A stretch of DNA of 63,887 bases, filler included, from Klebsormidium nitens (lineage: Eukaryota > Plantae > Klebsormidiophyceae): assembly GCA_000708835.1 (NCBI GenBank). It is 5 parts of 5 records of this genome, joined end to end, with 100 filler letters (N's around TTAATTAATTAA, not from the genome) between each part and the next. Parts side by side here need not be neighbours in the genome. Positions count along the whole stretch, not along the records: positions 31,752 to 47,393 come from DF238037.1; 4 more parts are not named here. One strand, written 5' to 3'. Below are positions 31,652 to 57,243 of the stretch, one piece after another (positions within the stretch are counted from its first letter, which is position 1; the number at the start of each line of letters is the position of its first letter). The translations under genes and the position numbers were made by a program. Under the pieces are notes generated by a model, which saw only the letters and a program-made list of their open reading frames with translations, did no database searches and was not told the origin of the DNA.

Positions 31652-31751
31652 NNNNNNNNNNNNNNNNNNNNNNNNNNNNNNNNNNNNNNNNNNNNTTAAT
31701 TAATTAANNNNNNNNNNNNNNNNNNNNNNNNNNNNNNNNNNNNNNNNNNNN
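31652..31751. other. Assembly gap with TTAATTAATTAA linker
   Basis: 44 N + ttaattaattaa + 44 N, an artificial 100-nt spacer. Confidence 0.98.
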
Positions 31752-32870
31752 CTCTGAGGGGGCCGGATCTTCCTAAGCCCCGTGCGCCTCCACCTGCCTG
31801 CTGCTACCCGGCCCGTATTTCCCGGGCCCTCGAAGGTGCCTTTTGGACTCGACGGCCTCTCCTTAAGTGTCTGAGCCCCGACCTTGGCCGCTGGTACCCG
31901 GTCGCTTGGCCCTAAGTTCCGACGATTCGACGCACCGGTGATCGAAAATGTCCCGGACCGTCGTGGGGGGGAGCCTACGTGGCGTCCTCTCCGGTACATG
32001 CAAGAAAATTTACCGTCACTGCCAAATCCGGCACGATCGTTAACGCCTTTCCACCGTCCGATCGGGGCGGGCGCATCGCGACCGTTCATTTAACACCGAA
32101 CTTCATTTGGTAGGCCCTTGACCCGGTTGCGCCGTCGAAGCAAAAAGACGGTTGCGACAGTGCCGCCAACTGCCGGTTTTCGTGACCCTTACCGCCCATA
32201 ATCAGCGTTCCCGGTCTGAAGTAGTCAGCAGATTCATGACTCGGTCTCAAACAGAAGAGACAGGAGAGACGGATTTTGCCATGACCGAGCCTCGAGCCCA
32301 TGAGTCAAGATCGAGTGCTAAGCCTATAGCATGCATGCCCTCGGGATTCTGTACCTAAATAGTCACGAGGCTTTGACAGAGGGAATTTTTGCGCCCGGGG
32401 GTAGCTTCTACTTTGATTGCTATCCTCTTTTTGTGTTGAAACCAACTCACTTGTGAGTGGTCTGGGCTGCACCGAGTCAGAATCAAGAGTCAGAAGTCAG
32501 GAGCCGACAATACAGGCTCTCAGGGCGAACGAAGTGGGAGAGGCCGAAGGCCCCACCCAAAGCTGTACACCCGTGCGCATCGACTCAAGGCGTGCCGTAT
32601 GAGACGCCATTGATAGGATCAAAAGCCTGCATTGCGTCCTGGAAGGTTGATCCCTGCATGGTCAGAAGCGCAGCCAGCATTGCGTGTAGCTAAGGAGCTG
32701 AAGTCTGAACCCAATTGCTGATCTTCAAACCACTTGGCATAGGCGCCCATTGTCTGGCTGTCTGGGAGGGCAACTTACGACTGTCTACTACAAACTTCAA
32801 CCCTCAGTCCACTTTAAGTGCAACCCTCAGCTCCCTTGGAATTTAATCTTCAGCCCCGCGTCCTCCAGCC

Positions 32871-35800
32871 ATGATGGCAGCTTGCACTCAAGTACCCTCC
32901 CCCGCAGCCGTGGTGAGCCTCGAGAGAGCACCGCTGAGACCTCAGCAGCGGTCCTGTAGGGCTCTTCTACGGCCGAATTCGAGATGCGGGCAGCACGTGC
33001 TCTTCCTCGGGTCCTGCCAGGATCTTCAGGAAGGGCTGCAGCAGCGGGCACCTTTGGCTCACTTACGCAGCTCAGGGCTCAGGTTGAAGCCCTTGGGCCG
33101 GCCGTCCTCCTCCATTCTCTGCTCCGCAACAGACTCCTCTGGGAAGCCAACATCAGATAGGTAGGTGACTCGGATATTGTAGACAGAGGCTTCCTGCTTG
33201 TTCAGCGATATGAGGATATGTTGGTGATGAGGTTTACAAGGGTCGTGTTTGCGGTCGAGAATTGAGCAGGCTTGTCACTGAGATTGTGTTTGGTATAGAA
33301 GTATAAGAGAAGTGAACAGAAGCTGTTTGCCTATACAGTAAGCACTGCACATCCAGCAAGTTGCTGCATATTTAGATGCAGATGCTTGTACTGTAGCCAT
33401 CGCAGAATCCTCTCGTACGGAATTTTTTGCTTGCCTTGCAGCTCTCCCGTCAGATACTTCAAAAATGATGAGAGGCCGGAGGACCCCCTTGAGGTGATTC
33501 CCTTCGACAGTGAGACTGGGCTGGTGGACCTTACCGTGCTGACCACAGTGGCAGGGACAGACCGGCCCTACGTGAGGGTCCTCGATTCCACCGGGAAGCT
33601 CTGGGTGAGTTTCACAGGCAGGCTTGGCGGGCCTGTCAAGTTCTACGGAGACGGGACTGCATCCAAACCCTACCTCTTCAGAAAGCCCGGTGAGTGTGAT
33701 AGTGCCCTGAACGAGGTTGGAGATGTGGGTTTTCCCTCACGTTTTCAGCTATACTTAGAAGCTAGATTTGCTTGGTCTTTCTCATAGATACAATGGGGAA
33801 TTATTCTGGTGTACTCCTCTTCATTTGGAATGCATTGGGAATGCATTGCTTCACATGGGAAGAGAAGTTTCTGATGAAGCTTCTTAGCATATGACAAAAG
33901 ACGTCAAAAAACTTATCTTTTCAAGAACAGTGTTCGCTGATGGGCTTCAAACGTAGTTTGAAACGTAGCTTAGCAGTACCCTGTAAGCAGATTACAGGGT
34001 ACTGCTTTGCGGCAGCTCTGAGTGCTCTATATTTTTGGACAGGAGTAGAGCAAGTTTATTTTGGAAGACGATGTTGGGATCGCAGTTTGAGAGAGGCAAT
34101 GAACTCTTGAGCCTTACGGGTGTGCTGATGGCATATCATTCCTGAGGTTTTGTTGTTCGTTTGTGCAGAAAGCGTCCCCTATGCAGAGCGAGTTGCATTC
34201 GCTCAAGTTTCGCCATCTACAATGAGCGAGTCGTACCTGCGCAACGAGCAGAGGGTCGACTCCACTGGGGCAAACATCCCTGGAGAAGAGAATGCCCGCT
34301 TGCTGTACAACCATAGGCCATTTACAGCAGCAGCGCTCCCCGCGAGCCTAGCATACCCGGGCTTTGGCAGGTTTTTAGATGGACTAAAGTCGAAAAATGT
34401 TCGCCCTGGTAGAGAGGACTACGAGGCAGCGGCGGCGCTGTGCAATGCTGGGCACCAACTGTTTTTGAAAGAGGACAAGCGCCGAGACGCCATCAATGCC
34501 ATCTTGTCAGAGTTCTTGGAGAAGCTCATTGAGCCTGTCAACTTGGAAGCCCGTGAGTAAATTCTCATTGTCATAGTCTGATTGGAGGCCTGAGGAGGAA
34601 TCAACTAAGCTCCGTGTGCAAGATTTTTCTCTCTGCTTTTCGACTTGATTAAACTTGTTACTCGAACTATCAGCTCGACTACACTTAGATGCTCTCAAAG
34701 ACTGTGCATGTTGTGGTTTTGGTTCTCTTGCTGTCCAAGAGACTCATGTCTGGAACTGCTTCTTCTGGATGTATTTGTGTTGTGTCCAGCTTGAGTATCT
34801 TAGAGGACGTCATTGCTTCTTATTGAAGGGCATTGCAAGAGCCAACAGATGCTTGGGCAGCCCATGCGCTTACGAGATCGAGCGTGGTTGTGATCTCTCC
34901 TTTTGATGGGCGTTTAGGTCTGACCACGGGACGCATGATTGATTACACTACGGACGGCTCTGCGATTGAAACCACCAAGGCCGGGGACTACATGTCTCTG
35001 AACACCGAATACAAGAATGAGGGCGGCCCTGTCTACTTCCAAAATCAATTCTACTACAAGACATTCTGGGGTGCCCGGCTGGAGAGTCCTCTTTTGCAGT
35101 CCTCGGTGGTTCCTACCTTCTTGATTGATCAGCCGGGCCCCCTTTTCAGGTAGGACGAGGTTGAAGGGAAATGAGCCCCTTTGCAACAGAATCCAGAAGT
35201 CAATTGAGGCGCATTTTTGCTCAATCCGAGTCTGACCGAAACAAGGCTTGGAGGATGTGCTCTCATCCTCTCAAATTCACACCAGCCAGATATTAAAACC
35301 TTTGAACAATATGGATTGCTTTTGGTGAGACGTGGTCAACATTTTCTGTTCCTCTATCCGCCCAATTTAGGTCTGGCACCCATTTCAGTTGCGCCTCCTT
35401 TCACTTTCGATCCACCACGCTCCGCCCACCTTGCCGCTCCTGCTAATACTGTGGGGAGCTTCTCACCGCCATTGTGACCCCCCCCCTTTCAGTGCTGTCG
35501 TCCCACCCCCCTGCACCTCCTTTGCTCTTTCTTGTCGCGCCACACCCGCTCCCCCAACACCCTCCGGGGGGAAATTCTGAGTGCACTTTCTACCCTCCTG
35601 CTGTTTTCCGTCACCGCCTTTGCGCGTCTCTTCCGCTCGTGCCCGCTGCACCGCCCCCGCTGTCGCAATTGCAGATCAGGGGGAGCTTCTGACCCCTGTC
35701 CCGAACCCTCCGTTTGTGCACAGACGCGCACCTTCCTCCCTGTTCTTCTCCCCTTATGACCTACTTATCCGAGCCGCTCCAACAACTGTCTTGGGGGGGG

Positions 35801-38762
35801 GCTTTCAGCGCTTATTCACCCCCCCTGCTTCCTCCTTTTTCCTTTTGGACCTTCTTTCGCCCCACCGTCCCCTTTTACCCCCGCTGGCCTCAAATCGGGG
35901 GCTTGTCGGGGCTGGCCTGTGCATCCCGTTCTGAACGGCTCTGTGGTTTTCATCACCTCCAAGCTTTCTCTTCGAAAGTCATATGGCTTGAGATTGCGCC
36001 CTTCGTTTCTGACTAAATCTGTGTTGGCATAGGCGGCTCGACGGGGCATATGGAAGCTTGAGGATCCAAGTTTCAGAGATGTTCGTCATTATACAGAAGG
36101 AGAGGATGGAAGTTCCGCTGCTTTTATTGGCTGGGGAACATGCAGGTCCAGCTGTCCGGAGCACCGACTCACTAGGAGTAATCGAGGTGGCTCTTAGATT
36201 CTGTGGAGTTTATGTTGGTGGACTGGAGTAGATGTCTTTATACTTGCTTCTTCTGAAACTGGGTCATTTCCGTCTCGTGCAGTGTGGTCGCGGCATTCTT
36301 CACGGATCATCTGCACGCGGAGCCGCTGACGCCGGCCCTCAACCTCGTCTCCCTTGAACGGTACAACCTGGATCAGATGGAGTACCTTGCACGGGTCCTT
36401 CTGAACCTGAAGCGGGAGCTCAAGGAGCTAGACCTATTCATGCGGGAGGCGGCGAACGAGAATGCCATCGAAAGGCGAAAAGACTACTTGCAAAGAAACC
36501 TGCCATACCCCTTCTATTCGCACTTTGAACGGAGCGGATCCATCTTCAAGAGGTAAGCTCCAAGCAGTAAGAGAGTCCACGGTTTGCTCCTTTTGGGATT
36601 CCACGGGTTGCTTCTCTTTGGGATTGTACTTTGACCCCGATCGAAATTTAAGCCCGAGAGCACATCATCCTCTCTTTGGGGCGGCTGCGTTGTTTGTTAG
36701 AGGGGCGCTGTGGCAAGGCACTTGCCAAAGGTTCTCCCAGGGCTCGTTTGGCAACGAAAGCAATTCTGTTCCGCTCATTTGAGAGTTGTTGGCGTCTGTG
36801 GCAAAGTGGCTGGAAATAAACGAACGGCGAAAGGAAGCGAGTGTAACATGATTCGCGAAAGTCTTTATGTAGGAGTTGCCTTCAGCTTTCAGAAGGTTTG
36901 AAAACCCAGCCGGCCGCCCTTCGAAAAGTGCTATTTGTTGGAGTCGGCACCTGACTGCAGCTGCCGTCCTTCGTGTTTGTTCTTCTGGTGTTCTTCACCA
37001 TTGTTCTTCATCAGAATCGGCATGCTTGGGAAAACCAGAAAGCGGATACTCTGCTCTAGTTCTCGTGCGCCGGTCAGTGTGGTTGATGGCCGCAAAACCG
37101 CCGAGGTTCGCTCTGAAGGCCCAAGCGAAAATATAAAATCCTCATGCCATGTGAGCAAAGCCGAAGGAGCAGCGAAAAGCCAGACCGGTGGCTTTCAAAC
37201 CCCACCAATATACTGCAATCAGGAGGCCGAGACCAAACGAACCCGCGCGCCCAGGATCCCGTCCTTAATACGTTCCATCGCCGTCCCGCTCTTTGCTCCA
37301 TTCCTCCCTCTTTCCGTTCCGCTCTCATTCCGTTCCGACCCCGTTCCACCGTCCCTCCGTTGTGCCCTCACTCCGTTCCGCTTCTTTTCTTCCCTTTCTG
37401 TCTTCGTTCCGCTCTCACTCCATTTTGCTCCCATTCCGTGTCATCCCGTTCCATTGCTGGTGCGCGCAGGCCACCTACATTCCCACAGTCAACTGAACAA
37501 CTGGTTTCATACTACTGTGGCATTGGTCGGGAGAATTTTGTGTTTGTACAGCTATGAGGGGCCAGAGCATAGCGCTTGCATTACATTGAAACGGATTCCG
37601 TTTTCCGTCTAATGTGTGGCAGATTGCGTGACATCAGCCGGCCCCGCTTTATTACCGACGGCCAGCGGATCTGGGTTGCGGTCCTGGATACCGGGGAGGA
37701 GGTTCTTGTCAAGTTTGCCCAGACCTATGGGAAGCTGGTCCACAAGGCCTGGGCCGAGGAAGGCTTTGCGCCTAGGCTGTATGAGTGCGAGCCAATCGCA
37801 GGTACAATGAGTTGGGCATGCCCTTGAAGAGCAAGATTCGGCAGTTGCCTTCAGCCAATTGTCCTACCTTGATGCTCGATCCTTTCTGTTGAGCTGGTAT
37901 TGCTACAAGCAACTCGTGTCTTTTCTACGTCTGATTTTTTGCCCCAAGAATTAGTTCGTTGTGACGCAAATTGCACCATCCCTGCAGGAGGGTTCTTCGT
38001 TGTTGTGATGGAGTACCTGAGCGGAGAGGACACATGGATCTCCATGGCGTCTCTCAAGGACGAGGCGCGGCGGAACGTCCTTCCCCTTGTCGAGCAAACA
38101 TTGCGCCAGGCGCACGCCGTCGAAGTCGATGGGCTAGGCGGCAAAGGGGTGCTTGGTGACTGCAGGGACCAGAACATCTTGTTACAATGTGAGTCACAAA
38201 AATGGACGAGGTAAAGATGAAGCGCGTGTGGTTAGTTTCTTGATTTCTGCTAAGTATCACGCGGGCATGCGTTCTGCCAAGCATCACGCTGTCCTCTGAG
38301 GCCGTGTGCATTAAAAAGCGGATGATTGCCTGGCATCCCTCATCTAGCTTCGTTGTCCACCTACTCCGTGCTCTACATGCAAACTAGCTACGCCGTTCAT
38401 TCTTGCTGCTTGACTACGTGCTTTGTGCATTGCTTGCTGCAAAGCAACCACCTCGCTGGGCCTGCTGTGCGGCACGTGCCACCTATGTCTGCATCGGTCA
38501 TAGAGTACTTGGTTCTTCAGTTTCCCTTTCCCTTGCAGGCGAGAAGGAGGTTCTGGGATCGACCATGGACCTGCGTGCACAGGATGTCTTGGCCGTGCGT
38601 TTTATTGACTTCGATTGGGCGGGGGTTGCGGGAGTTCAGAGGTACCCACCCTTTATGAATACAAAGCAAGTCGTATGGCCAGCTGGTGTAGAGACGGGAA
38701 ATGTTATAGATCAACATCACGACGTGGATCTGTTGAGAACCGGAGGTCGGATCGTCAAGTAG
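32871..38762 (+). CDS. Crinkler-like protein: transit-peptide-like leader + small N-terminal domain + PD-(D/E)xK restriction-endonuclease-fold domain + kinase-like domain, 8 exons, about 671 aa
   Basis: Exons 32871-33160, 33454-33689, 34169-34552, 34918-35149, 36283-36552, 37623-37801, 37988-38188 and 38539-38762 are all GT-AG and phase-consistent (2016 nt). REase motifs are TDG...EYKNEGG....QNQFYY. Kinase motifs are VLVKF...YG..VH.....GFAPRL, VVVMEYL, LGDCRDQNIL, FIDFDWAG and RYPPFMN...WP.GV..G..I...HD. Confidence 0.85.
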
Positions 38763-38773
38763 TTACAAAATTG

Positions 38774-38820
38774 AGCAGTTCAGCGATTCAGCGGTCCAGC
38801 GGTTCAGCGGTTTAGCAGTT
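38774..38820. repeat. 8-bp tandem repeat (agcggttc consensus, 6 copies) just after the kinase stop codon
   Basis: agcagttc agcgattc agcggtcc agcggttc agcggttt agcagtt. Confidence 0.85.
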
Positions 38821-39745
38821 GACTCTCATGGGGTCTTAGTGACGCAGCCTTTGTATAGATTGATTGAGGCAACAAATTCTAACAAATAACAGTACATTGT
38901 TTCCTCTTGGGATACACTGCATACGTTAGAGAAATAGGAAAAGGTCCGGGTCTAACAACATGAGTCCCAAGCCCGCAGGCTCCTTTGCGTCCAGAGGCAA
39001 TAAGCGAGGCAATGTTGTCATCATTTGGTTGCATGCACATGTTGAGTCAATTTTGCATGTTCGAATAGCGTCGGCATAATATGGCAGGTTCTCAGATGTT
39101 GCCATGGGAGCCATGCAATCTTGTGTACTATATGCCTGCCATGATGCATCATATACATGCTGCACAAAGATCCTGTTGTGTGTTCGGCGATATACTCGTG
39201 GTAATGATACATTGCATGTCCAGCTCGAGAGCCGTTGAAGTCACCACGATGAGGGGGTCGAACGGCTCTACAGTTTTGAATCTGATGAATCTCCAACGAC
39301 AACGTTTCAGTGATCTCTAAATCAAATTGCTTCAATCGCCTGTGCTTGTGCTTCAATACGCTGCATTTCAATCTGACCGTCATGCATGCCATGATGAGCT
39401 ACAGACGTTCTCGGACATCTATGCGTGCGGGCATCTGACGGATTGCTGAAGTTGGATTTCGGAGAGAATGTTGAACCCCCCTCGATGGGCTGCATGCATG
39501 GTCATCGGCCGCGGCCGGCCAGGCGCCCCTCAGCGGCTGGGACAATGCTAAATCTGTTGAACGACAAATGCCTCTTTTGGCTCTACAAAAATTCGTCTTG
39601 CCCCCCTCTCCCCTCTCATGCAGGCGGACCGTATGTATGCCGTCTCATGTGCAATCTAGTACTTTCGAATCTCATCAGAAGGATCATATCTTTGTGCCTC
39701 GAACGCCGCAAACGAATTGATCTAAACGTCCTTTCTCGTTTCCAG

Positions 39746-42700
39746 GGCATCGCCACGCTCTACAGAGACCTGGGCTACCCCGTCTTCTTGGGCAAGATCA
39801 CCTGGAACCCGCAGAAGGGATCGGAAAGAAGCGCTTCAAGTTTCCAAATAATTGGCCGGCGTGCACGCTGGCCAACTGCCTAGAGTCCTTCGTGCGCGAT
39901 GGCGACGACGCTCTGATGATCAACACCACCCGCTGCGACCTCATAGGCGTCGACGTCGACGTCAAGGACGGCGGTATGGTGGCTTGGACGGCCCTGGAGC
40001 AGGCGCACGGCGGGCCGGTCCAGGCGCCGAAGGTACGGACCGGTTCGGGGGGGTGGCCACGTGTCTTTTCGTTCAACAAGAGCGTCGCTGCGGGGCTGCT
40101 CCCAAACACACCCACCACCTTCACCAGGCTCCAGGTCGGAGCTGATCTCGTCGGGATCGACCTGCGCGGCAACAGCACACCGGCCTGCCTCGTCGCGCCG
40201 CCCACCACGTACGTTAACGGGGCGGGGGCGACCGTTGGTTACGTGGCTGTGGGGGAGGGCATCCCGCACATCAATGACCTGCCCCCTCTGCCGCATTTCC
40301 TCATCGACTTGCTGCACCAGCGGGTGACGCCCCCTGTGGGAGGCGATCGGGGGGCGCATGGCAGAGCTCACGGGCCCGAGCGGCCCCCATCGATGGAGCC
40401 CGATCTCGCATCGCCTGAGCTGCAGGCGGAGGTGGTCGGCGAGCTCACGAGGCTGTTGTGCGGTTGGGGGGACAACACCTCCGTCTTCTCAGAGGCGGTG
40501 GCGTCGTCCGTGGGGCCGGGGGTGCTGTACAAGTTCAGAAACGGGCCGCAGGGTCGAGCGGCCTGCCCGTACTTCCCAGCGGGGACGGGCAACCACGATT
40601 CGAACAACTTCGGGCTGTTGCGGCGGGGAGTGGAAATCAGCTACATTTGCCACGGGGAGCGGTGCAAGACGGAGGCGCGGGCCAACAGCATCCGGCTGGG
40701 GGCTCTGCCCTTTCTTGTGGCCGCCTCCTTCTCCGATAGCCAGCCCCTGAACAGCGANNNNNNNNNNNNNNNNNNNNNNNNNNNNNNNNNNNNNNNNNNN
40801 NNNNNNNNNNNNNNNNNNNNNNNNNNNNNNNNNNNNNNNNNNNNNNNNNNNNNNNNNNNNNNNNNNNNNNNNNNNNNNNNNNNNNNNNNNNNNNNNNNNN
40901 NNNNNNNNNNNNNNNNNNNNNNNNNNNNNNNNNNNNNNNNNNNNNNNNNNNNNNNNNNNNNNNNNNNNNNNNNNNNNNNNNNNNNNNNNNNNNNNNNNNN
41001 NNNNNNNNNNNNNNNNNNNNNNNNNNNNNNNNNNNNNNNNNNNNNNNNNNNNNNNNNNNNNNNNNNNNNNNNNNNNNNNNNNNNNNNNNNNNNNNNNNNN
41101 NNNNNNNNNNNNNNNNNNNNNNNNNNNNNNNNNNNNNNNNNNNNNNNNNNNNNNNNNNNNNNNNNNNNNNNNNNNNNNNNNNNNNNNNNNNNNNNNNNNN
41201 NNNNNNNNNNNNNNNNNNNNNNNNNNNNNNNNNNNNNNNNNNNNNNNNNNNNNNNNNNNNNNNNNNNNNNNNNNNNNNNNNNNNNNNNNNNNNNNNNNNN
41301 NNNNNNNNNNNNNNNNNNNNNNNNNNNNNNNNNNNNNNNNNNNNNNNNNNNNNNNNNNNNNNNNNNNNNNNNNNNNNNNNNNNNNNNNNNNNNNNNNNNN
41401 NNNNNNNNNNNNNNNNNNNNNNNNNNNNNNNNNNNNNNNNNNNNNNNNNNNNNNNNNNNNNNNNNNNNNNNNNNNNNNNNNNNNNNNNNNNNNNNNNNNN
41501 NNNNNNNNNNNNNNNNNNNNNNNNNNNNNNNNNNNNNNNNNNNNNNNNNNNNNNNNNNNNNNNNNNNNNNNNNNNNNNNNNNNNNNNNNNNNNNNNNNNN
41601 NNNNNNNNNNNNNNNNNNNNNNNNNNNNNNNNNNNNNNNNNNNNNNNNNNNNNNNNNNNNNNNNNNNNNNNNNNNNNNNNNNNNNNNNNNNNNNNNNNNN
41701 NNNNNNNNNNNNNNNNNNNNNNNNNNNNNNNNNNNNNNNNNNNACGAGAGACGGGAGAGACACGTTTTTAGAGGAGGGTCTCATGTGCTTTTTCTCCACA
41801 CCGTCTTGCAGGTGATGTGGGCGGGGCGACCATCATCGAGCGCATCTACCTCAGGAAGGGGCTCAAGTTCGTCTTCACTCCAAACGGGTGGTTCTACTGG
41901 AACGGGATCATCTGGGTCGCCGACGAGGGCGGCAGCCACATCCTACGAATCATGCGCGAGGAGCTGGTCAAAGTAGAGAAGGGCTACCTGGCCGAACGAG
42001 GATCGAACCTCGAGGCGCGGTCGGACGAGGCATCGATGGAGAGCGACGACGAGAGCCTGACGGACTCGGGTACCGCCGGTACCGAAAGGAACGGCAAGAA
42101 GAAAGAGCCTAAGATCGTCAACTTCAACTTCAACGCGAAGATGTCGAACGTCCTCACCACCTGCAAGGACATGTTCTTCAACGCGGGCTTCGAGGGGAAG
42201 CTGGACTTCAACCGGGACTTCAGGGCCGCTCAGAACGGGGTCATCGACCTCAAGACCGGGGGTTTTTAGCCCCATCACCCGCGGGTGAGCGCGACGAATC
42301 GTCTTGCCATTTTTGCTCGAACTCTCTACGTGTTTCTGGTCGCAACCTCCTTCGCTCTGCCGCAGTCTGTCTGGAGCGCTCGTCGGTAAAGGCCCTCCTT
42401 CTCATCGGTTCTCTTCGTTTTTCCTGCAGTTCTTGCACAGCAAGTACATGAGCTGGGCTTACCCCTTGACGGGGCTCGCCACCCCGCTGGACGACATCCT
42501 TCGTGTGCTGCGGGACATCATGCATGCTGAGGCGCTCGACGGCCAACTCGCGATGGATCACCTGCAGTGCTTCCTCGGGTACGACCTGACAGGGCATACT
42601 AGCAGCCAGGTACGTCTTGGAGGGGTTCACCTATTATGGTTTCATTCAAAAACAATTCTACTAGGGAGTCTCACCGAAGTGTCTCCTCGTTCCACGTGAT

Positions 42701-44162
42701 GACGCTCCCATCAGCACTCGGCGACGACAAGCAAAAAACGCTGGATCATTTGCAGTGCCTTAGGGGTACCGCTTGGAGAGTAACACCTATTATGGTTTCA
42801 TTCAAAAACAATTCATATTAGTGAGTCTCCTCGTCTCATCCCACCACTCACTTGACGAATCATCTGCAGGTATTGGGAATCTTGTACGGGGAGGGTAGTG
42901 CAGGCAAGAGCGTTCTCATGGCTCTGCTGAGGCTGCTCCTCGGGAGGTTCTACAAGGACATGAACAAGGACATCATCGTGAGCGCGAGGGGACAGAGGGC
43001 GGCCGCGAAGGGCGCGGCATCCCCCTTGGAAGCAGGGGAGGAAGCTCATCCCTTAGAGATTCTGGGTGTGAGCGACCGGGGCCGAGTACAAAAAACCCGT
43101 CCCTCCTGTCTCTCCTGTCTTTTTCCCTGCCGTTTGAAGGTGCATCATAGCTGCGAGACCAAGACTCTCTTGTTGAAAGTCTGCGAGGCAAAGCCCCCTC
43201 AATGTGCTGCAGGGCTGAAGGGTATTCTGATGGCGGGCGTCGAAGAGACGAACGTCACCGACACACTCAACGAGGGAGGGGTCAAAAAACTAACGGGCAC
43301 GGAGGTGGTCACGGGGCGGCCCCTGTTCAAGGACTTTGTCACATTCAATGCGACGATGCTGGTGAGGCACCCGAGGATCGACTTGCTTTCTCTTGAACTT
43401 TCTGACACTGAATACCCCAAAGCCCCGAGGGATGAGAGCAACGCATGCGAAGAAAAGGCGTATGTGTACTCGATCATTTTACTGCATGCAAACAAAAGCT
43501 CTCGCTTTCGAGTTTGATCTCATCTTCCTCCACTCCCTCTGCAGCTCATCCTCCGTACGAACCACCTTCCACAGACTGAGAAGGCTTGGTCGATCGCCCT
43601 CCGGAGGCGGCTCCAGCTGGTCTGCTTTCCAAAGCGCTACTTCTCCGTCAACGAGGTTGGCTACGACTCGACAAACCCCCTCCATGGGGTCGTAGACACC
43701 AAGCTCATCGCGCGGCTGAGCGACGCTCCGCACATGGAGCAGTTTCTGGTCTGGCTCGTACAGGGCGCCGTCCGATGGTACGCGAACGGGGAGCAGCTGC
43801 TCCCCATGCCCGCGCGCAGCATCGCAGCATTGGATGCCTACCAGGTCGACAACGACCCCTTCGCGGCCTTCCTGGAGTGGAGCTGCGACTTCGGGCCGAA
43901 CCTGTTCATGCCGACCGTCGCGGGGATGCAGGCGTACAACAACAGGGCACGCCTGGTGGACGGGCAGCCCGCGGCTTACACGTTCGACTTCGTGGGGACG
44001 AAGAAGTTCAAGGAACTGATGGCCAGCAGAGCTCAGTTCCGAGGACCGGCGAAGACGAACGTCCTGGGACTCGGCACGATAGTTGGTGTCACGGAGCGCG
44101 GATACCGGGGCCTGGCCCTGAAGCAGCCACTGCCGGTCGCGCCCGGTAGTCACCCGGCATAG
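39746..44162 (+). mobile_element. Intron-containing primase-helicase gene (Prim-Pol + UL52/PrimPol-type Zn finger + D5_N + SF3 helicase) of virus or mobile-element type
   Basis: Prim-Pol motifs are GVDVDVKDGG, VRTGSGG and GIDLRG..CLVAPPT. The Zn finger is CPY...HDSNN...YICHGERC. D5_N motifs are WFYWNGIIW, AQNGVIDLKTG and LQCFLGYDLTG. Walker A is GEGSAGKS and the Walker B region is LKGILMAGVEE..LNEGGVKKLTG, followed by LILRTNHLP, RRRLQLVCF and terminal YRGLAL. Exons are 39746-(gap), 41812-42284, 42430-42609, 42870-43035, 43213-43361 and 43545-44162. Lesions occur at about 39818, 40058-40066, the TAG at 42267 and a GG donor at 43036. The start codon was not identified. Confidence 0.9.
40758..41743. 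other. Sized assembly gap (986 N) inside the primase-helicase gene
   Basis: N run without linker. Its right edge is a reverse-orientation piece of the 70-bp satellite. Confidence 0.98.
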
Positions 44163-44611
44163 ATAGGAGTCTAGTCAGCTTCTCAAAGGTCCCATATGTT
44201 CAAGGACTCGTGAAATCTCGTGTACATATTTGTGTATTCAACGAAAACAGAAGCATGTCCATATCATGACGTCGCCGATCGCACATCTGTGCATTTGTTC
44301 GACATGCAGCGTGCACATGCTCCATATTGCAATATCGTTTTCGTTCCTCCGTCGTTTGTTAAGCTACCGAGAAACCACCCCAAAAAACATGTCTCTCTCT
44401 CTCCTTTTGCTGCAGCGGCAGCATATTCTATGGTTGGCTTCCGGCATTTTTCTCGATTGAGGGGAAACGAAACGGCTGTCCAGCTCAGTATGATTGCTCC
44501 CACATCGCGCCTCCTTGACCTTATTGAGGTCATCCTTTGCCCGTAAGTATGAGTTCACTGCATTGTGGAGCCGGATCACGTCTGCCCCCCGAATTTAGTA
44601 TGCATCATGAG

Positions 44612-45470
44612 TGAGATTTCTGAGCCGGACCTTGCACCCAAAAACATGTCTCTCCCGTCTTTCGTGTCCCCAATGATTGGCCAGGATTTTTGAGCCAGAC
44701 CTTGCCTCTAGAAACATGTCTCTCCCGTCTTTTGTGTCCCCAATGATTGGCCAGGATTTCTGAGCTGGACCTTGCCTCCAAAAACATGTCTCTCCCGTCT
44801 CTGCTGTCCTCAATGATTGGCCAGGATTTCCGAGCCGGACCTTGCTCCCGAAAACATGTCTCTCCTGTCTCTCCTGTCCGGTCAATGATTGGCAAATATT
44901 TCTCAACCGAGCCGGGCCTTGCTCCCAAAAACATGTCTCTCCCGTCTCTGCTGTCCCAGATGATTGGCCAGGATTTTCGAGCCGGACCTTGCTCCCGAAA
45001 ACGTGTCTCTCCTGTCTCTCCTGTCCCTCAATGACTGTCAAATATTTCTCAACCGAGCCGGGCCTTGCTCATAAAAAGGCGTCTCTCCTGTCTCTCCTGT
45101 CCCTCAATGATTGGCAAAGATTTCTCAACCGAGCCGGACCTTGCTCCCGAAAACATGTCTCTCCCGTCTCTGCTGTCCTCAATGATGGCCAAGATTTCTG
45201 AGCCGGACCTTGCTCTCGAAAACATGTCTCTCCCGTCTCTGCTGTCGCCAAGGATTGGCTTTGTAAACTTGTGACATGTCTTTCTCGTCTCTGCTGTCCC
45301 CAAGGATTGGCCAGGACTTCTGAGCCGGACCTTGCTCCCAAAAACATGTCTCTCCGGTCTCTGCTGTCCCCAATGATTGGCAGGGTTTCTGAGCCGGACC
45401 CTTGTCAAAAAAGGTGTCTCTCTTGTCTCTCTTGTCTGCAATAATTGAGGAGGATTTTTGAGCCGGAACT
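44612..45470. repeat. Minisatellite array, about 12-13 units of 69-70 bp and 76-77 bp variants
   Basis: The unit gagccggaccttgctcccgaaaacatgtctctcccgtctctgctgtcctcaatgattggccaggatttct starts at 44621, 44691, 44761, 44831, 44908, 44978, 45054, 45130, 45199, 45321, 45390 and 45459. Confidence 0.95.
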
Positions 45471-45643
45471 TCCTGCAAAAACTTGTTGTCGGCACTCTGC
45501 CACTGCGACGAAAGGGTGGGTTCGACGACCGAGCTGCGAGGATTCGAGCTCTTTTTGGCCCTCACTCATGCACTCACGCCGCCCAACAGGGGACATGAGC
45601 CGGTGCATCTCGCTGGATGGGCAGATTGGGGGCGGACCTGAGG

Positions 45644-47245
45644 ACCCACAGATACACGCATTGCGAGCGAACCCCAAAGGTTTCTCCTAGGCCTAGTAGA
45701 TTGCAATCCAATTCTGAAAAAAGGTTTGGATCTTCTGTGTAATGCGTGGGTGTCTAAGTACAGCCTTTTGCATTATTCCTCTCGGACCCCCCTCGAGCCG
45801 ATTCGTAAATAGCGGCACCGCCTTCGGATCGGGTCGATATGTGGTCAAAAGGGCTCAAGGATGGCGAGGTTGGCTCTCAGTCGAGAAATTTCGTAAGCGA
45901 AGTGCACCCATCTGACGCATCGCCTGTGCCCAACCGAGTGAAATGAAAGACGAAATCCATTTCCGCCTGGTTGCGAGGATTCTTGAGGGGATCCCTCTGA
46001 AAGATTGCAAACTGTGGGCATACGATATGATGTAGTAGCAGCTCTGCCCGCCTGCCTCCTTGCTCTTTCGAAATCAAGGGGCAAAAGGGCCTGGTCTATT
46101 CTGTTAGCAACTTAGGGAAATGATGCATGTACAGAAAGAGCCAAGGATGGAGAGGCAGAACGACCGCACGGACGGAGCGCCCGAATGGGAGGTACGAGCT
46201 GATGGGAGAATTTTTGCGTGCCTGCTAGTGCATCCTCCCGATGCAACGAGCTGCGAGAAGGAATACGCTTCAAAGCAAGGGCTCGAGATGCATCGCAGGC
46301 GGATGGCCGTGCAGGAGCCAAGCCTGCCGAGCCGACGAACGGTCTCGAGATTTTTTGGGCTCGACGAGCAGGGAGCCAAGTCGTTGAAGGCGAGCCACAA
46401 CGAGACGTATGTCGCAAACTACCGCCGCACTGCAAAGGGGAAGCTGGCAACATTTCGTGCGAGGCATTCGAAGGAGCTGCGGCTGCAGGCGGCGGAAATT
46501 CTGCCGTATCCAGCACCCCTCCCGCCGCCCGCCTATCTGCCTCCCCCCATCTCCTGGCTCCTGAGCAAGAGCCCGGTTCGTGCTGACGGCTTGGCGGACC
46601 TCTTTGCGGGCATCGCAGGCGGGCTCAAGATCGATCATCGGACCTGGAGTCTTCAATATCACCCTGACCACGTGAAGGTGAGCCGACAACACGGATTGAT
46701 ATAATGAGCACATCTGTACACTTTTGAACGGAAACCCATTTAACCCTTTTTGAAAATATGTAAGTCTGTACACGTTTTTGTTGGTTTTCACTCTGAAAAA
46801 CCTGATAATACTTGTGTATGTACCCTTATTACTTGAAACATCTGTGTTTTCCGCGAACTTTCCTTTTGGACCCATCGAAAGTCGATGTGAACAATTCAAA
46901 GCCTTTTCTCCGCCCCGCCTCCCTCCAAGACCTCTGAAGGCCAAATGGGCTCGACCCCAAAAAGCAACAGAGGAGTCGAGCGAGACATGCCGGCCGCCAT
47001 TCAAACATTTTCAATGCACCTCGTCGCTCAAACGAGCTCGTTCTAAGTCCATCCGGCTGGCTTCGGTCGCACCCTGACGAGGAAACGCAAGAACTTGAAA
47101 GGATGTTGCGTTTCTTTGAGAAGAGCAATCTCGAGGCACCCACGCATTACACAGAGGATCCAAACCTTTTTTCAGAATTGGTTTGCAATCTACAAGGCCT
47201 AGGAGAAACCTTTGGGATTCGCTCGCAATGCGTGTATCTGTGGGT
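45644..47245. repeat. 112-bp inverted repeat pair (45644-45755 / 47134-47245)
   Basis: The reverse complement of the left arm (agacacccacgcattacacagaagatccaaaccttttttcagaattggattgcaatctactaggcctaggagaaacctttggggttcgctcgcaatgcgtgtatctgtgggt) matches 47134-47245 with about five substitutions. Confidence 0.92.
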
Positions 47246-47388
47246 GTGGCCCAAGTGTCGTGCATGATTGATTGAGTGTTCGACATCATCCAACAGCTTG
47301 CGCGCTTTTTCCGCAGGTCAAGAACCCAACCGCCATCGAGGCCTTTGAGAAGCATCACGGCTACTTCATTGACGACGAGCTTAGGTGA
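46120..47388 (+). CDS. Small protein with a C2H2-like Zn-finger motif and a C-terminal J-domain-like HPD segment (2 predicted exons)
   Basis: ORF 46120-46704 contains FACLLVHPPDATSCEKEYASKQGLEMHRRR and WSLQYHPDH followed by gtgaag/gtgagc donors. The acceptor ttccgcag at 47316 opens VKNPTAIEAFEKHHGYFIDDELR*, resembling J-domain helix III. Confidence 0.5.
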
Positions 47389-47393
47389 AGCGG

Positions 47394-47493
47394 NNNNNNN
47401 NNNNNNNNNNNNNNNNNNNNNNNNNNNNNNNNNNNNNTTAATTAATTAANNNNNNNNNNNNNNNNNNNNNNNNNNNNNNNNNNNNNNNNNNNN
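47394..47493. other. Assembly gap with TTAATTAATTAA linker
   Basis: Artificial 100-nt spacer. Confidence 0.98.
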
Positions 47494-50400
47494 GTCCAAC
47501 CGTCACAGATGTGCTGGAAAGCGGGGTTCCTGATAGGCCGCGGCGGGGCAGCCGGCATAGCCAGCGCGCGCCCACTGCGGTCGAAGATATATGTCGTGAC
47601 TGTCATCAGTTCTATGTTGTATTGATCAAGTCGGCGTCGAGCTGTCTCAGCTTCCAGACGCGAAATCGGTGTCTTGATATGCAAGGGCATAACGGCCCCG
47701 ACATAGCCGCGAATCACTGCTGTGTACGCATGCAGCGGGGAGCGGCCGTACTCAATCGGGAATTTCACACCGAAGGTAGGCGCTGCGCTCGCTGTCTGTG
47801 TTCGGGTCCACATAATACTTCACCCGCTGCTTGCGGGGGTTCGGAATAATGCTGGCCGGTCCGATGACACTCATCCCAATCAGTGTGTCAAGCAGATCGT
47901 GGGATGCAATCACCACGTGCGCCATAACAGTGACTATGTCAGGGGTGCATGGGTTCAGCTCGAAGCTGACCGGCTCAAGTGTTCGATCCAAGCGGTCGGA
48001 CAGGTGTCCCGTTGCACCGCGGATCACAATCGCTCTGCGGCGAATCATGTCAGGGGTAATCCCCATTGCCTTGGCACCGGAGGGGCCAATAATGACGGCC
48101 TGAGCGCCAGAATACAGAATCAAGTTCGGCACCACGCGCCCGTTCACAAGGAGGGCAGGCTGCGGGCCGGAGTTATCAATCCGAGGTGACCTGTGGAACC
48201 CCGCGGTCGGGTCACTGTGGTACGCCCCTGGCAGCTTCCCTAGGAGCGCCAATTCGGGGGTTCTCTGGATCGTCAATGTTGTCTGCAGCCGGCTCTGGGG
48301 GCGAACCTAAGGCAGCTGGTGCCTGGTCGGCTTCTTGCAGCGCGGGCGCAGTGTCCACTGGGGCAGTCGGCCCGTAAATGACTCCCTGTCGGCGTGGATC
48401 GTCCGACGGCAGCTCCTGAAGGCCCTGAGGCAGAATCCGTGTTCTGGTTGTCCCCTGGGCTGCGCTCTTAGCAGCGTCTTCTGGTGCAGTCTCTTTCTGC
48501 TTTTGTTTAGCCAGCGCGGCAACCTCCGGCGCGGCCGTCTGGGCGGAATCCGGCTCTGCGCGCTGCTCAGCTTCGGCTGGCTCGGCAGGCTCGGGTCTGG
48601 TCGGACTGGAAGTTCGAATAAAGTCCTTGGGCAGAAAGCCCAGCGGCATGTCAGCGAGACGGCCGCGACGTCGTTCGTTCTTAGGGGCCCAGTGTCGTGT
48701 GGGGCCACTGTGCAGCTTAGGTGCGGCCTGGCGTGAGGCTGTTGGCCTACTAACTGGCTGCTGCTTGCCCGTTCTGGTTGCGGCGCGCGCTGACATCACG
48801 CAGGCGCCGTATCCTGTGACGCGTCCATAGTGGGCGTCCCAGAGCTCCTGAAGCTCCTCAAGTGTGGGCTCGGCCGGATCCCTGGGCTCGTTCTTCTGAG
48901 CGGCCGGGGCCTGCGCGGCGCGAGCGTTCGCAAGGGGCGGCGCTGATGGCGCCCCGTGCTGTAGGGCCTTGCATTCGGCCGTGTCATGGGTACTGGAGTT
49001 GTGATGCTTGCACCACTTCTTCAACGCGCCGGGCACCTGCCGCTTGGCGCGCTTTATTGCGCAGTGAGAAGCCCAGTGGCCGAATTCTCCGCATTTGTAA
49101 AACTTGCTCTTAGCCTTCGCTGAGCCGCCGCGCTGTGACTCTGCAGCTGCGTTGGCCTGAACCACTGGGGCGATATGGCCCTTTTGCGCCGAGGGTGACC
49201 GGCAATTCCTAGCGATGTGACCGAACTGGCCGCAATTGTGGCATTTGCGGTTGTCAGCGGCCCTTTCGGCGGGGCCAGCCGACTTCGCGGCGGAGCCGCG
49301 TCCCGCATCACTGTGTGTGCTCGGCTGAGAGGCCGAACCTCAGAGCGCTTCTGTGCAGCGCTTCTTCTCCACGCGGATTGCCACCTTGCTAATCTGGTCG
49401 ACTGTCAGGTCGTCGTCACCAGTATCCTCAGCCCATACAATTCTCCGAATTTCACCGCGAAACTGCTTCGGCTCAATTGCATCGAGCAGCTTCTGGGCGG
49501 CCATGCCCTCTGGTCCCTGTAAGACAGTCATGAGCGTCTTCATCCTCTGAGTGAGGCTCGACATGCTCTCATTCGTCTGCATGCGGAAGTTATTGAACTC
49601 GTTTATTTGCGCAGTGGACTTCTCTGGAAAGAGGTCCTTGATCATGGCCCAGAAATGGCCAACCGGGTCGTCATATACTTCGAGGACCGCTGGTTTCTGC
49701 GCCTTGACCGGCGCAGTCGCGGCTGCGCGCTCGGTCGCTCCAAGCGCATCATGCCTCTCTTTGTCACGCTCATATTCGACGAGCTCGCGCTCAAATGCGC
49801 GGAGGCGCGCCTCATTCCATTTGTCCAAATCGTCGGCCATGCGGCTCTCAAGCTCGCCGGCGCAATCGCGAGCCTGACCCGAGGTCAGCTCAACAAGGAA
49901 ATAGAAGTAGTCATTCTCATTCAGATTCTCTGTATTTGGTCGTAGCTTTAACTTTGGCATCATCGTCTTATAGCTCTGTCGCAAATGCGACACACTCATC
50001 CCGGCTGGCCCACCGGTAAAGCGGCCAGCACCATGCTGCGCATGCATATTATCCATGCTGTCGTCGGTTTCGACAACCCAATTCACAGGATTCAAATCGG
50101 AATTGTGCAATGCGCTCGATTCGGCAGGGGGTAGCACACTAGGACTCTCAACAATATAATCACTGTCAATGTCAGCAATATACGATTGAGCCGTGTATCT
50201 GACTCGACCCTACTCTCGATCGCTCTCTCTTCCTGTCGATGGTGCATGTTTCTAAAGTTATAACGGTGCATCAATTCGACCAAGCGACGCTTATGCTGTC
50301 CAAGCGCGTACGCTAACCCTAGGGAGCGGCACTGTAACCTGTCTCCCCCCCCTGCCGCGACCTTGTCTGATCACAGGCACTTGGGTATGGTTGCTGGTCT

Positions 50401-53212: not shown

Positions 53213-53939
53213 CATAGCGTTCTAGAAGTAGCGCGCGACCATGCCCTAACTCGAAGGCCGTAGAAGCCACCACTCCAGATCTCAAAAAAGATTGCCGCGC
53301 AGAATAAGGTAGTTTCAGCCGTCAAAAAGTCCATCGACAGTGCAAACGTGCCTCAGCCAGGCAGCAGGCAGGAAATAGTGTTTTTTGCGGGGCAAAAATG
53401 CTCTGCGCGTGCACAGTGTGGCTGCGCGTGAATAGTGTGCATTTTACCATACCGTCGCTCGAGCAGAATGTTACCGGAGGCCACGCGTCGCATCCATCGA
53501 CTGCCAAATATACCACGCAGTCCAAACCTGTCAGATTGCGCAGAGGTACCGTACGGTTACAGAGTCCAGCCTCTACGGTCAATGTACAACTAATTTGACT
53601 TTGGGCGGTAGCTATAGACCGCCGTGCGAAAACTCGTAGAGGCCGCGCCGATTACAAATTGTTGCCAGTGACTCGACTCGGCCGGTCGCGACTCGCACGG
53701 TGGAACATTCACCGAGGGTAGACTCTGAGTGTCACGGCAATATGAAATGGCGGTCGGACATAGTGGTCGGAAGCAATTTGATTTCCCGGTCCTTGTGTTT
53801 GGAGCTCAGCTGCCCCTAACTTCACTGGCGCCGAACCTTATCGTGCGAACGAATCTTATCCAAAGTCCCCGACCACTTCTCCATCAAGCAACCGGGCTGA
53901 GTTAGGGGCATGGTCGCATGCTACTTCTAGAACGCTATG
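53213..53939. repeat. About 40-bp inverted repeats flanking a 650-bp non-coding segment (non-autonomous DNA transposon-like)
   Basis: catagcgttctagaagtagcgcgcgaccatgccctaactc (53213-53252) matches the reverse complement of 53899-53939 (catagcgttctagaagtagcatgcgaccatgcccctaactc) with 2 substitutions and 1 indel. Confidence 0.85.
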
Positions 53940-56744
53940 ACCGGTAAAGAAGTTGTGGTTAGAATGCGAGTAGGCGCGCGAGTAGGCGTTAACGCGGCCG
54001 CCGCAAGTGTGTCAGGGTTTGAGTGGACCTCAGGCGTTGACGGCAACGATGACGATCACTAGTCCTTAGAGTCGTTCGATAGATTGAAGTAATTGAGAAC
54101 CACCAATAGAAAGATACGCTGGACAGTCATTGGTCGAGGCAAAGTGGTGTTTCGTAGACTTCGCGTTTTTAGAGCAACACTTTGAAAGGATCTAAGAAGA
54201 CGGTATCGAGGAAGACGTATGTTTGCTTAATCCTCACCAGATCTTGACTTGAGTAGACACAATTGAATCTGCGCTTGTTTGATTGCTTGTTTGAGAGGCG
54301 CTTCCTTCTAATAGCGTTTTGATTAGGGACACTTGTCTTTGTAGCGTTTGGTTGGCGTTTCTGCCAGTATTGCATACTTGTAAGCTTGTCAAGCATTCCG
54401 GGACGCCTTATACCCCGCAACCTGAACGACGCCGGTTCTCAACCTCATACCCTCTTGCGACCTGCCTGTCATATCACTTGGTTCTGAGCTCGATCAGACT
54501 TCACCGCGAATGTGCTGCATTGCAACGTGGTGAATGCACAGTAGTCCACACAACGTAGACACTGCCATTGGTGAGCTTATGCGAGTTGTGACTTATTGTT
54601 TGGTTCGTTGCTTCACATAACTGCTAGCTGGAGTGGCACTCCCGTGTGTGATGCTTGATTGTGGTAGTATCGCACTTGTCTGGTTAGCTTTGCATGGGCC
54701 CCACGCTACATTCCGCTGCCTGCTAATCAATAGTTAGCTTGTCTGTACTATCCACGCTGAATTACACTGACGATTAATTGTGGGTCAGTATCACTTAGAG
54801 CCATCCGGTAGTGGGAAGTAGTAGTGACGTTTGTTATAGACTGCTAGTGGTCTCATCGTTCCGGTGATCTTCCCCAGTGTATCACAGTCTTACATCACTA
54901 ACCTCAGGGTCCGAAATTCTAGAAAAGACGTCATTTTGGAACTGACAAGAAAAAAACGATATTGTTCCAGCCAATATCTTAGACATCTTCCTGATGTGAC
55001 CAAAAAAAATTTAGCTTGGTTTTTTTGGTTTACAAAAAACCAGCTATCGTTTTTCCCCCCAGCGTTTGAAAACCCCGAACGTGAGCACCTTAGCTTGGAT
55101 CACTCAGATAAGCCAAATTTATGCGTCGAAAGACACTTTCGCCCCATACTATTCCTTGGAATGATCGACCCGAACTTTCGATGGTTCGATGCAAACTGCT
55201 GTTCAAATTTCTTTTTTTCGCACGTGTAAGGCTCTTTTCGAGCGCGTTCATTTGTGCATTCTGCGGACATGCCAGGCTGAGGCTCGTCTTCAGTGCGGAC
55301 TCGAATCTTGAGATACGGTGACTCGTGAGGCCGTGGCCCGTCCTACGGTCCAAATGAGCTTCAATTTTGCACGCTTGAAGTAACTTTCAACACGTGCAGC
55401 TGAGTGTATTCCGTACGCAAAGTCGGTAAGCAGGGGCGCGCCGCTCTGCGTATCACGAACACCGGGCTCCATGCGCTCAATTTCGCTAGAGGAAAGTGCC
55501 CGGGGTCCCGGATTGCTCTTCTCTTATCGACCTTTCTAGATCCGAATCTGCATTTTGACTAACATCAGGTTTTTCAGCTGGCGGTTCACAATTACCGATC
55601 ACTTTTTCAAGCACCGAGAGTCTCCGTGACCCTACCGTCAAATTCGCAACGCCTACTTTTCATTCGATACCTTGGACCCCCTTGAAAACCGAGCATACGT
55701 GGCGTTCCGCCACCGGTCACATTTTTAGCTCGTTTATAGATTTATCTATAACGAAGCTGTCGGAATGGTCGCCGACCTTGAAATGGGAGAAGGCAAAATT
55801 TTATCCGTCGAAGCAAAACACCTGAAGAGCGACCGTGCCGGTTCTCGACAGTCTGAAGCTCGATGAGGCAATATTTTTTTGTCGTGTAGTGCCTCCAACT
55901 CTCTTTTTTTTGACCCGAAGGACGACAAAAACTTCAGACGGTTGAACATTTCACCGTACGCCTTTTTTACTGTAGCCTGCGTGAAGCAGATACAGCGTAG
56001 TTTACTTCCGCGACGAAATTGCGACCGGTTGAGCGCGAAGATTCCGGCGGGAGCACGAACGCTGACGAACCTGCTCCCGGTCGCATCCGGGTGCCAAAGA
56101 TTTAGGTGCCAAAATTTTGCGCGAAGAAATTAAGAATCGGCCGGGGACTTTTGGCCACGCGCGCATTCTCCAAACCTACTATAGGCTCAGCCCGGGCCCG
56201 CTCAGTGATCGGATCGGACGGCCAGTAGCTGTTCAGTAGTATTGGAGTACATCCGTCCGATGGATTCGGACAGCTGGATCGTGCGATGCAGCTAGGTAGA
56301 AGTACTATGGTCCAAATAAGATTTGTCCAATCTGCCCTACGGGGACAGGGGGGCTGAAAGTACAGGCGATGTGGCCACCCCTACTCTGGACACAATCCAT
56401 ATATTAACTATATTATGCTTTAAAGAGTCATCATAACGGTTGATAACGCAATTTATACTGCCACTAAATAGTCGGAATGAGCCCTGTATTGAAATTTGGG
56501 TCAGCGTTCATATAATGTGCATATTCAGATACGTATGCATAACCTATAAACGAGCTCCTAAACGGCGTCCCGCCGTTTCTCATTTTTTTTTTTTTGACAC
56601 ACATATTCGGGGTGAGATGCCTAGCTGCATGACATTGAAAGCAGCCTGACAAGGGTTTTCAAAGCCAGTAAAGAGACTCTTTTCTTCTCTTTTCTGCGTG
56701 AAACTTTGAAGGCCTATCCTGGGCCCGGAGGTTGCCAGAGTTGC

Positions 56745-56968
56745 CTGCGACATTGCGCGACTTTCCGCGATTCTGCGCGACTTTGCGCGACTGCTCCGCG
56801 ACTGTTCCGCGAACTTCGCGACCTTCACCGCGACTTTAACAATCTTTGAAAAGCATGTTTTGGAGCAACTTTATGTTTATATGCCTTGGAATGCTCCGCG
56901 ACGTTTCGCGACTTTTCGCGACTTTCCGCGACCTTCGTTCGCGACTTTGTCCGCGACTCTGCGACCTC
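56745..56968. repeat. Two short arrays of an about 10-11 bp CGCGAC(TTT) motif
   Basis: gcgacattgcgcgactttccgcgattctgcgcgactttgcgcgactgctccgcgact... at 56745-56836, and a second run at about 56898-56968. Confidence 0.85.
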
Positions 56969-57243
56969 CGGGTCCAGGATAGGCCTCGTGAAAACCGGGG
57001 TCATGTCCCTGTGGAGACCAAAAATTCACCAAAAAGAACATGGAGCAGCTGCTACCTGATCAGCCCTCAATCCCTGGTTGTTCCTAGACATGGAATCAAG
57101 CTAGTAGTAGCTGTACACGTCAGAAGGAATGTGCAATCTGCTTTCCGCACTTTCTCCAAAACTTCCTGAATGGCTGGTCGCTCGTAGTAGAAGCTAGGTT
57201 GATTCAATCCAGTTTGACCAACATTACCTGATCAGCAAGCGCA

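Follow-up and report, generated by a model that had tools for sequence, protein, structure and literature searches.

A decayed, intron-bearing primase-helicase gene of Klebsormidium nitens as a probable relic of a virus-derived DNA element family

How does a primase-helicase of virus and plasmid type come to be divided by five introns in the genome of an alga closely related to land plants? The question is raised by a gene at positions 39746 to 44162 (plus strand) of a 63,887-nt stretch of Klebsormidium nitens DNA, referred to here as the window. The window comprises five scaffold pieces, and the true context of the gene is confined to piece 31752-47393 (15,642 nt). The annotated protein KFL_010880030 of K. 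nitens (P0022 among the proteins compared) is 100% identical to the window across the matched stretch. On balance, the gene is probably the decayed replicase of an undescribed family of virus-derived, intronised selfish DNA elements in the Klebsormidium nucleus. No account of this family was found in the literature covered, which included few subscription papers; Figs S3/S5 of PMC5294986 may include these loci.

Primase, zinc finger and helicase in one chain

The coding exons and introns of the gene are as follows, in window coordinates.

39746..40757, plus strand: first located coding exon, with Prim-Pol (archaeo-eukaryotic primase, AEP) and putative UL52-type zinc-finger domains, from sequence, Pfam and fold comparison
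40564..40665, plus strand: zinc-finger motif C-x9-H-x-S-N-N-x14-C-H-x3-C, reading CPYFPAGTGNHDSNNF..CHGERC
40758..41743, no strand: assembly gap of 986 nt that conceals about 24 codons of exon 1 and most of intron 1
Across the gap to 41811, plus strand: intron 1, its acceptor joined at by contigs of runs X5 and X9
41812..42284, plus strand: exon with D5_N, interrupted by an in-frame TAG at 42267-42269
42285..42429, plus strand: intron 2, GT-AG, 145 nt, phase 0, skipped exactly in X5 and X9 contigs
42430..42609, plus strand: exon, from sequence and collinearity
42610..42869, plus strand: intron 3, GT-AG, 260 nt, phase 0, from protein collinearity, with the acceptor used in X5
42870..43035, plus strand: exon with the superfamily 3 (SF3) helicase Walker A motif GEGSAGKS (42888-42911)
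43036..43212, plus strand: intron 4, 177 nt, phase 1, donor GG in this copy, skipped in X5 and X9
43213..43361, plus strand: exon with the Walker B motif MAGVEET (43230-43250)
43362..43544, plus strand: intron 5, GT-AG, 183 nt, phase 0, skipped in an X5 contig
43545..44162, plus strand: last exon, with the remaining SF3 helicase and a C-terminal domain (YRGLAL...), ending in stop codon TAG

A sequence-only reading of the window had listed the Prim-Pol motifs DVDVKDGG, RTGSGG and GIDLRG..VAPPT, the zinc finger, the SF3 motifs and YRGLAL, all of which were found in place. The assignment made there to a virus/plasmid-type fusion of Prim-Pol, zinc finger and D5 helicase was borne out by the Pfam profile searches that it had proposed and by a match to the C962R protein of African swine fever virus (ASFV). 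Exon 1 exceeded the curated cut-off for Prim-Pol (PF09250; E 4.6e-6, 27.6 bits against 22.8) and exon 2 exceeded that for D5_N (E 1.1e-6). The protein therefore has the make-up of a D5-like SF3 primase-helicase, in which D5_N and a helicase with Walker A and B motifs are fused to a primase. When joined, the exons of 41814-44159 yield 527 codons in phases 0, 0, 1 and 0 with one internal stop. The G+C content is 58-66% in exons and 47-55% in introns, and CpG depletion was not seen in the exons (observed/expected 0.99).

The model of an intact relative, P0033, was of high confidence (predicted local distance difference test, pLDDT, 91) and had ASFV C962R as its best solved match (Foldseek E 4.9e-23), with giant-virus D5 proteins as the best matches among viral models. 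The profile match to C962R (E 1.5e-50) was confined to the helicase half. The zinc-finger domain of the window has no Pfam match. When its model (pLDDT 85) was compared with 48,161 structures, the first-ranked match was residues 910-1043 of herpes helicase-primase chain 9ut1_B (Z 5.7, root mean square deviation 4.2, 105 aligned residues), which we take to be UL52. Seven of the eight top viral matches were named as giant-virus primases or origin-binding proteins, with weak E values of 0.02-0.06. Each of these structural results is weak, and together they fit a UL52-like finger modestly; the likeness to herpes UL52 and PrimPol suggested from the sequence thus stands in this qualified form.

The Pfam score places the catalytic domain in Prim-Pol (PF09250) and not in the NCLDV-herpesvirus clade of AEP domains (NCLDV, nucleocytoplasmic large DNA virus), and a PF09250 match above the cut-off was present in 21 of the 35 members of alignment A6. 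A section of the review PMC4538821 assigns the UL52-like finger to the NCLDV-herpesvirus AEP clade and keeps that clade apart from the Prim-Pol one. The protein thus appears to be a chimera in which a catalytic domain of phage/plasmid type is joined to a finger and helicase of eukaryotic-virus type.

Splicing, lesions and multiplicity

Contigs of four runs were aligned to positions 41744-44600. Run X5 is guessed to be RNA and the kind of X9 is not recorded; both carry another organism label. Read support covers this interval, and the first-exon lesions and upstream splice site are known from the assembly alone. The X5 and X9 contigs represent a close homolog, mostly 90-99% alike in X9 and with a wider spread in X5. 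No run recorded as RNA is listed for the exact stretch, which is no evidence in either direction. In these homolog contigs, introns 2 and 4 were skipped in X5 and X9 (177 nt with a 6-nt ambiguity for intron 4) and intron 5, with GT..AG ends, was skipped in X5; the contigs join at the acceptor of intron 1. The loose ends of X5 and X9 contigs before 41811 encode residues hidden in the gap, to which residues 369-392 of P0001, unmatched in the window, also correspond. For intron 3 the sole listed join used a cryptic, out-of-frame donor at 42579 in an X5 contig, and the donor at 42610 was placed by protein collinearity alone. Four further runs gave only eight short pieces and no junctions. Since the contigs belong to homologs, they show splicing of the family and not expression of this copy.

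All five acceptors end in TGCAG. Moreover, the joined protein is collinear without gaps at all four junctions with P0004 (53% identity), P0028 (44%) and P0033 (33%). A sixth intron upstream of 39746 is likely because no start codon was located and the exon is preceded by an acceptor-like ...ttccag. Intron 3 contains an internal 50-nt duplication (42609-42658 and 42765-42814), a degenerate repeat of the end of exon 3 and the donor region.

The copy in the window is a pseudogene. The reading frame shifts near 39818-39825. A further pair of shifts, +1 and -1, around 40047-40066 turns motif II into GSGGWPR with loss of the catalytic histidine; motif II is TGSGGxH in P0021, P0108, P0002, P0025 and P0005. 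This copy consequently lacks an intact set of the Prim-Pol catalytic motifs DxD, GxH and D. The in-frame TAG at 42267-42269 is a sense codon in an X5 homolog contig. The GG donor of intron 4 at 43036 recurs in a contig without differences from DNA run X1, which is possibly the source sample. Because of the two frameshift lesions in the first exon, the TAG codon and the GG donor, the protein can no longer be made from this copy. The sequence-only reading had missed these four lesions.

At least 12 K. nitens loci, on 12 records of different length, encode relatives (P0001-P0006, P0022, P0025, P0026, P0028, P0031 and P0034); 30 hits were looked up and more may exist. The records are 9.5-136 kb long and 10 of the 12 are shorter than 35 kb. 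Identity within the main family is 43-88%, and subfamilies are 43-62% identical. P0001 and P0006 end early, and Prim-Pol motifs are missing from P0003, P0004, P0006 and P0026. Another copy in DNA run X1 is about 90% similar and carries the same set of introns; the copies have a common 3' flank to at least 44331. The pattern is that of a dispersed, multi-copy family with decayed members rather than a single intact copy orthologous across streptophytes. An ordinary housekeeping gene present once is set aside on this multiplicity, on the lesions of this copy and on the lack of another streptophyte among the hits that carry names. In P0002, P0003 and P0006, the N-termini bear long low-complexity extensions with a repeat-like word, Y/S-x-P-S/T-S-P-x-Y, and a KRRR-like basic patch; the word presumably resembles the heptad of the RNA polymerase II tail.

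Four subfamilies are represented by the gene calls P0021, P0023, P0024, P0030 and P0032, each of which breaks off or becomes dissimilar at the alignment column of intron 1. The tail of P0006 has the appearance of an intron-2 donor. The position of intron 1 thus appears to be common to four subfamilies, and the introns are probably older than the subfamily split. The sequence-only reading took intronisation to imply long nuclear residence. Introns alone do not prove long residence as a host gene, as intron-rich nuclear viruses exist among the mirusviruses (part of 10.64898/2026.08.29.747986). According to a portion of PMC11244446, most endogenised giant-virus genes in Amoebidium are without introns.

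Wider relatives, repeat array and competing accounts

A full-library search with exon 1 returned 87 hits, many of them proteins of 770-980 aa with Prim-Pol, D5_N and DUF5906, and the C-H-C-C finger pattern of this kind was present in 39 proteins. In a helicase tree of 68 rows, the five Klebsormidium rows formed one clade (SH-like approximate likelihood ratio test, SH-aLRT, 100) nested in a 30-row group (95) with 25 other Prim-Pol-zinc finger-D5 proteins. This group was separate from the phage primases sampled. In a second tree of 58 chosen rows, which included giant-virus and phage D5 proteins, the family held together (87) and its nearest row was L012, a D5 from a giant-virus metagenome-assembled genome (95, on a long branch). 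P0034, the helicase part of which was too short for inclusion in the helicase tree, fell in a second Klebsormidium lineage in a Prim-Pol tree. The trees were quick or FastTree reconstructions with midpoint rooting, and for this reason no donor is claimed.

The relatives include P0074 of Mortierella and others on contigs of 4 kb to 2.0 Mb, among them P0033 (24 kb), P0110 (35 kb), P0118 (36 kb), P0054 (45 kb), P0120 (395 kb) and P0098 (2.0 Mb). The Mortierella protein and those on contigs of 0.26-2.0 Mb (P0098, P0131, P0120 and P0096) suggest integration in eukaryote chromosomes or giant-virus genomes. P0115 is encoded by one uninterrupted open reading frame (ORF) among compact genes in the 3.7-kb context L011, the only one of 91 loci examined that contains the family zinc-finger domain. 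An ORF that appears F-box-like by eye and has no PHROG match lies directly upstream of P0115 (L011 1210-1860, minus strand). In P0042, P0043, P0113 and P0114 the Prim-Pol domain and zinc finger are fused to another C-terminal part without D5_N; their contigs of 4.3-4.7 kb are possibly small plasmid-like replicons.

Database scans added no members. IMG/VR scans with P0033, P0110, P0045 and alignment A4 found no relative, alignment A3 retrieved 10 distant helicases, and alignment A7 retrieved 572 matches in 11 of 64 parts scanned, with no family member among the 80 retained. Nothing was retrieved when metagenomes were scanned with the Klebsormidium alignment A2. GTDB scans contained no member, seven pattern matches and likewise one viral match being judged chance. 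The ESM Atlas yielded generic Prim-Pol clusters only, and phage/plasmid records covering 80% of the query numbered 0 of 1350 and 0 of 497.

Repeats accompany the gene in the window.

44614..45481, plus strand: array of about 12 tandem repeats, each 70-76 bp long, 450 nt downstream of the stop codon, from repeat analysis
41747..41769, minus strand: copy of the 23-nt array motif inside intron 1, from motif search
43091..43113, plus strand: copy of the 23-nt array motif inside intron 4, from motif search

All 13 matches to the 23-nt motif lie within 41747-45430; the rest of the 63.9-kb window has none, and the number expected by chance is 0. The array is a possible origin or protein-binding site. 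A weaker copy of the motif was observed at 32251-32277 (minus strand), near the left end of the scaffold, and could mark a larger unit that includes a kinase-like gene.

The favoured account, a decayed replicase of a selfish element, would operate as follows. By analogy with the known D5/C962R and Prim-Pol families, an intact protein would assemble at the element's origin into a hexameric SF3 helicase and unwind the DNA there, with the single-stranded template gripped by the UL52-type finger. The Prim-Pol domain would supply primers or short stretches of DNA, from which host polymerases would finish the copying in the nucleus, the compartment that provides splicing. The family may go back to an acquisition from a small eukaryotic DNA virus or plasmid, with introns gained ahead of the division into subfamilies and spread as DNA afterwards. 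A more far-reaching version of this account, which we offer tentatively, is that the family represents nuclear DNA elements of a new class in eukaryotes, self-replicating and without a capsid, either transposons or plasmids, with a chimeric Prim-Pol/UL52-finger/D5 replicase and a repeat-array origin. Members in environmental and fungal hosts would lack introns, and those in Klebsormidium would have acquired introns and multiplied.

Several results weigh against a selfish element. None of the 12 annotated K. nitens proteins is complete end to end, to which annotation errors may contribute. In the best-supported 40 of 332 rows, 25 of 32 exonic differences are synonymous; the homologs are under purifying selection and appear to be transcribed, which fits a host gene too. 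One contig each of DNA run X1 and of run X18 (guessed RNA) spans introns 2-5 with 679 nt (42169-43614), exactly the spliced spacing of P0004, and represents a P0004-type paralog without introns 2-5. Copies therefore differ in intron content, and retroposition may contribute to spread; these contigs may reflect a retrocopy or intron loss. On the 15.6-kb scaffold, 0 of 99 flanking frames reached a Pfam cut-off, although short or spliced exons could hide genes, and no capsid, packaging ATPase, integrase, recombinase or pPolB was recognised among all 99. As element ends and target-site duplications were not seen on the scaffold either, and an integrase was not found, the self-replicating transposon envisaged in the sequence-only reading is not established.

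Domestication of a viral gene is a possible but doubtful alternative. A single horizontal acquisition would have been intronised as a host gene, for example in repriming or antiviral defense, and duplicates and pseudogenes would have arisen by segmental duplication and retroposition in repeat-rich regions. Host-like TGCAG acceptors at conserved intron positions, the spliced homolog contigs in runs with another organism label, the mostly synonymous differences and the extended N-termini of P0002, P0003 and P0006, which bear basic patches, all suit this explanation, and the intronless P0004-type contig is compatible with a retrocopy. However, domestication does not readily accommodate the abundance of copies that are broken or cut short, most of which lie on short scaffolds, the two separate Klebsormidium lineages with P0034 apart, or the tandem array linked to the gene. 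Moreover, no other streptophyte was represented among the hits that carry names, which are only some of the hits.

A capsid-encoding virus, whether a Polinton-like virus (PLV), a mriyavirus or a giant virus, is an unlikely source. The gene would be the primase-helicase of such a virus, which would have integrated repeatedly, with the capsid module on other scaffolds or decayed. Fusions of AEP and SF3 domains commonly serve as the replication module of PLVs (parts of PMC12220804 and 10.64898/2026.06.19.733378) and of mriyaviruses (part of 10.1101/2024.02.29.582850), several relatives are on contigs of 24-45 kb, and the top viral matches of the zinc-finger model are NCLDV primases. Section 3.3 of PMC5294986 describes several NCLDV inserts in K. 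flaccidum, and the D5 cell of its Table 1 appears blank, where a symbol may have dropped. However, the inserts reported in that section are dense in viral genes whereas the present scaffold is not, no virus hallmark gene was recognised in the 99 flanking frames of its 15.6 kb, and the IMG/VR scans described above contained no family member. An assembly artefact or contaminating DNA, which the short scaffold and its 986-nt gap might suggest, is very improbable in view of the host-type intron sites, the several copies in a DNA run and the spliced homologs in runs with another organism label.

Scaffold setting and known systems

Upstream of the primase-helicase gene on the same scaffold, at about 33450-38762 (plus strand), is a gene of several exons, one of them nuclease-like (EYKNE..Q..YY), with a kinase-like end (DFDWAG..RYP). 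The gene, which we assume to resemble fungal Crinkler-type nuclease-kinase genes, has no Pfam match, and the ESM Atlas gave nothing for one exon. Downstream, a 1.6-kb unit with 112-nt inverted arms (96%) at 45644-47245 encloses an ORF (46108-46704) in which a C2H2-like motif is present in degenerate form. This unit shows no visible target-site duplication, and no tie to the primase-helicase gene was established. The pieces of the window are separated by artificial linkers of the form N44-TTAATTAATTAA-N44, and genes on other pieces are not neighbours. The linkers and the features of the other scaffolds are as follows.

31652-31751, 47394-47493, 58985-59084 and 61734-61833: artificial linkers
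48212-50209, minus strand: frames resembling Gag, with zinc knuckles of the CCHC type (Pfam zf-CCHC E 7.5e-9), a fragment of a long terminal repeat retroelement
354-941 (plus), 8576-9085 (minus), 13233-13814 (minus), 19367-19921 (plus) and 57232-58164 (plus): host-type gene fragments, including alpha/beta hydrolase-like, MatE, transferase and weak F-box sequences
53213-53939: short inverted-repeat unit with 34-nt arms
56710-56986: short inverted-repeat unit with 26-nt arms, enclosing 10-nt tandem repeats

The classes of mobile DNA in eukaryotes are defined by enzymes, namely DDE transposases, tyrosine recombinases, HUH proteins and pPolB. If the favoured account is correct, a family spreading by a primase-helicase only would add a replication strategy to this scheme. 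On a plainer reading, a viral replication gene gained introns and expanded in a close relative of land plants. The results also draw attention to a clade with at least 25 additional replicases, known from metagenomes and one fungus.

Among known systems, the NCLDV D5/C962R proteins, including ASFV C962R and poxvirus D5, similarly combine an AEP-type primase, a zinc module, D5_N and an SF3 helicase in one chain. In contrast to these, the primase here is of the PF09250 phage/plasmid clade with similarity to C962R in the helicase half only, and the gene has five introns and no adjoining giant-virus genes. The AEP-SF3 proteins of PLVs and mriyaviruses, as portrayed in portions of the sources cited above, likewise serve small eukaryotic DNA elements as a single-chain primase-helicase in place of a DNA polymerase, whereas the present scaffold has no capsid, ATPase, integrase or HUH gene, its gene contains spliceosomal introns and the IMG/VR scans retrieved no family member. 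The P4-family Prim-Pol-D5 primases of phages and plasmids, such as those of a Xylella phage and Streptomyces plasmids, share the PF09250, PF08706 and PF19263 domains and about 28-32% helicase identity, but form a separate clade in the helicase trees, and the UL52-type finger was not detected in phage-like IMG/VR matches. Herpes UL52 and eukaryotic PrimPol resemble the protein in a C-H-C-C zinc-finger domain, with modest structural support, but belong to another AEP catalytic clade (a section of PMC4538821) and have no fused SF3 helicase. Finally, although the viral contigs of K. flaccidum are dominated by NCLDV genes, which the present scaffold with its intron-rich gene is not, the giant endogenous viral elements described there (Gallot-Lavallee and Blanc 2017) resemble the family in host genus, in multi-copy genes of viral type and in residence on short contigs.

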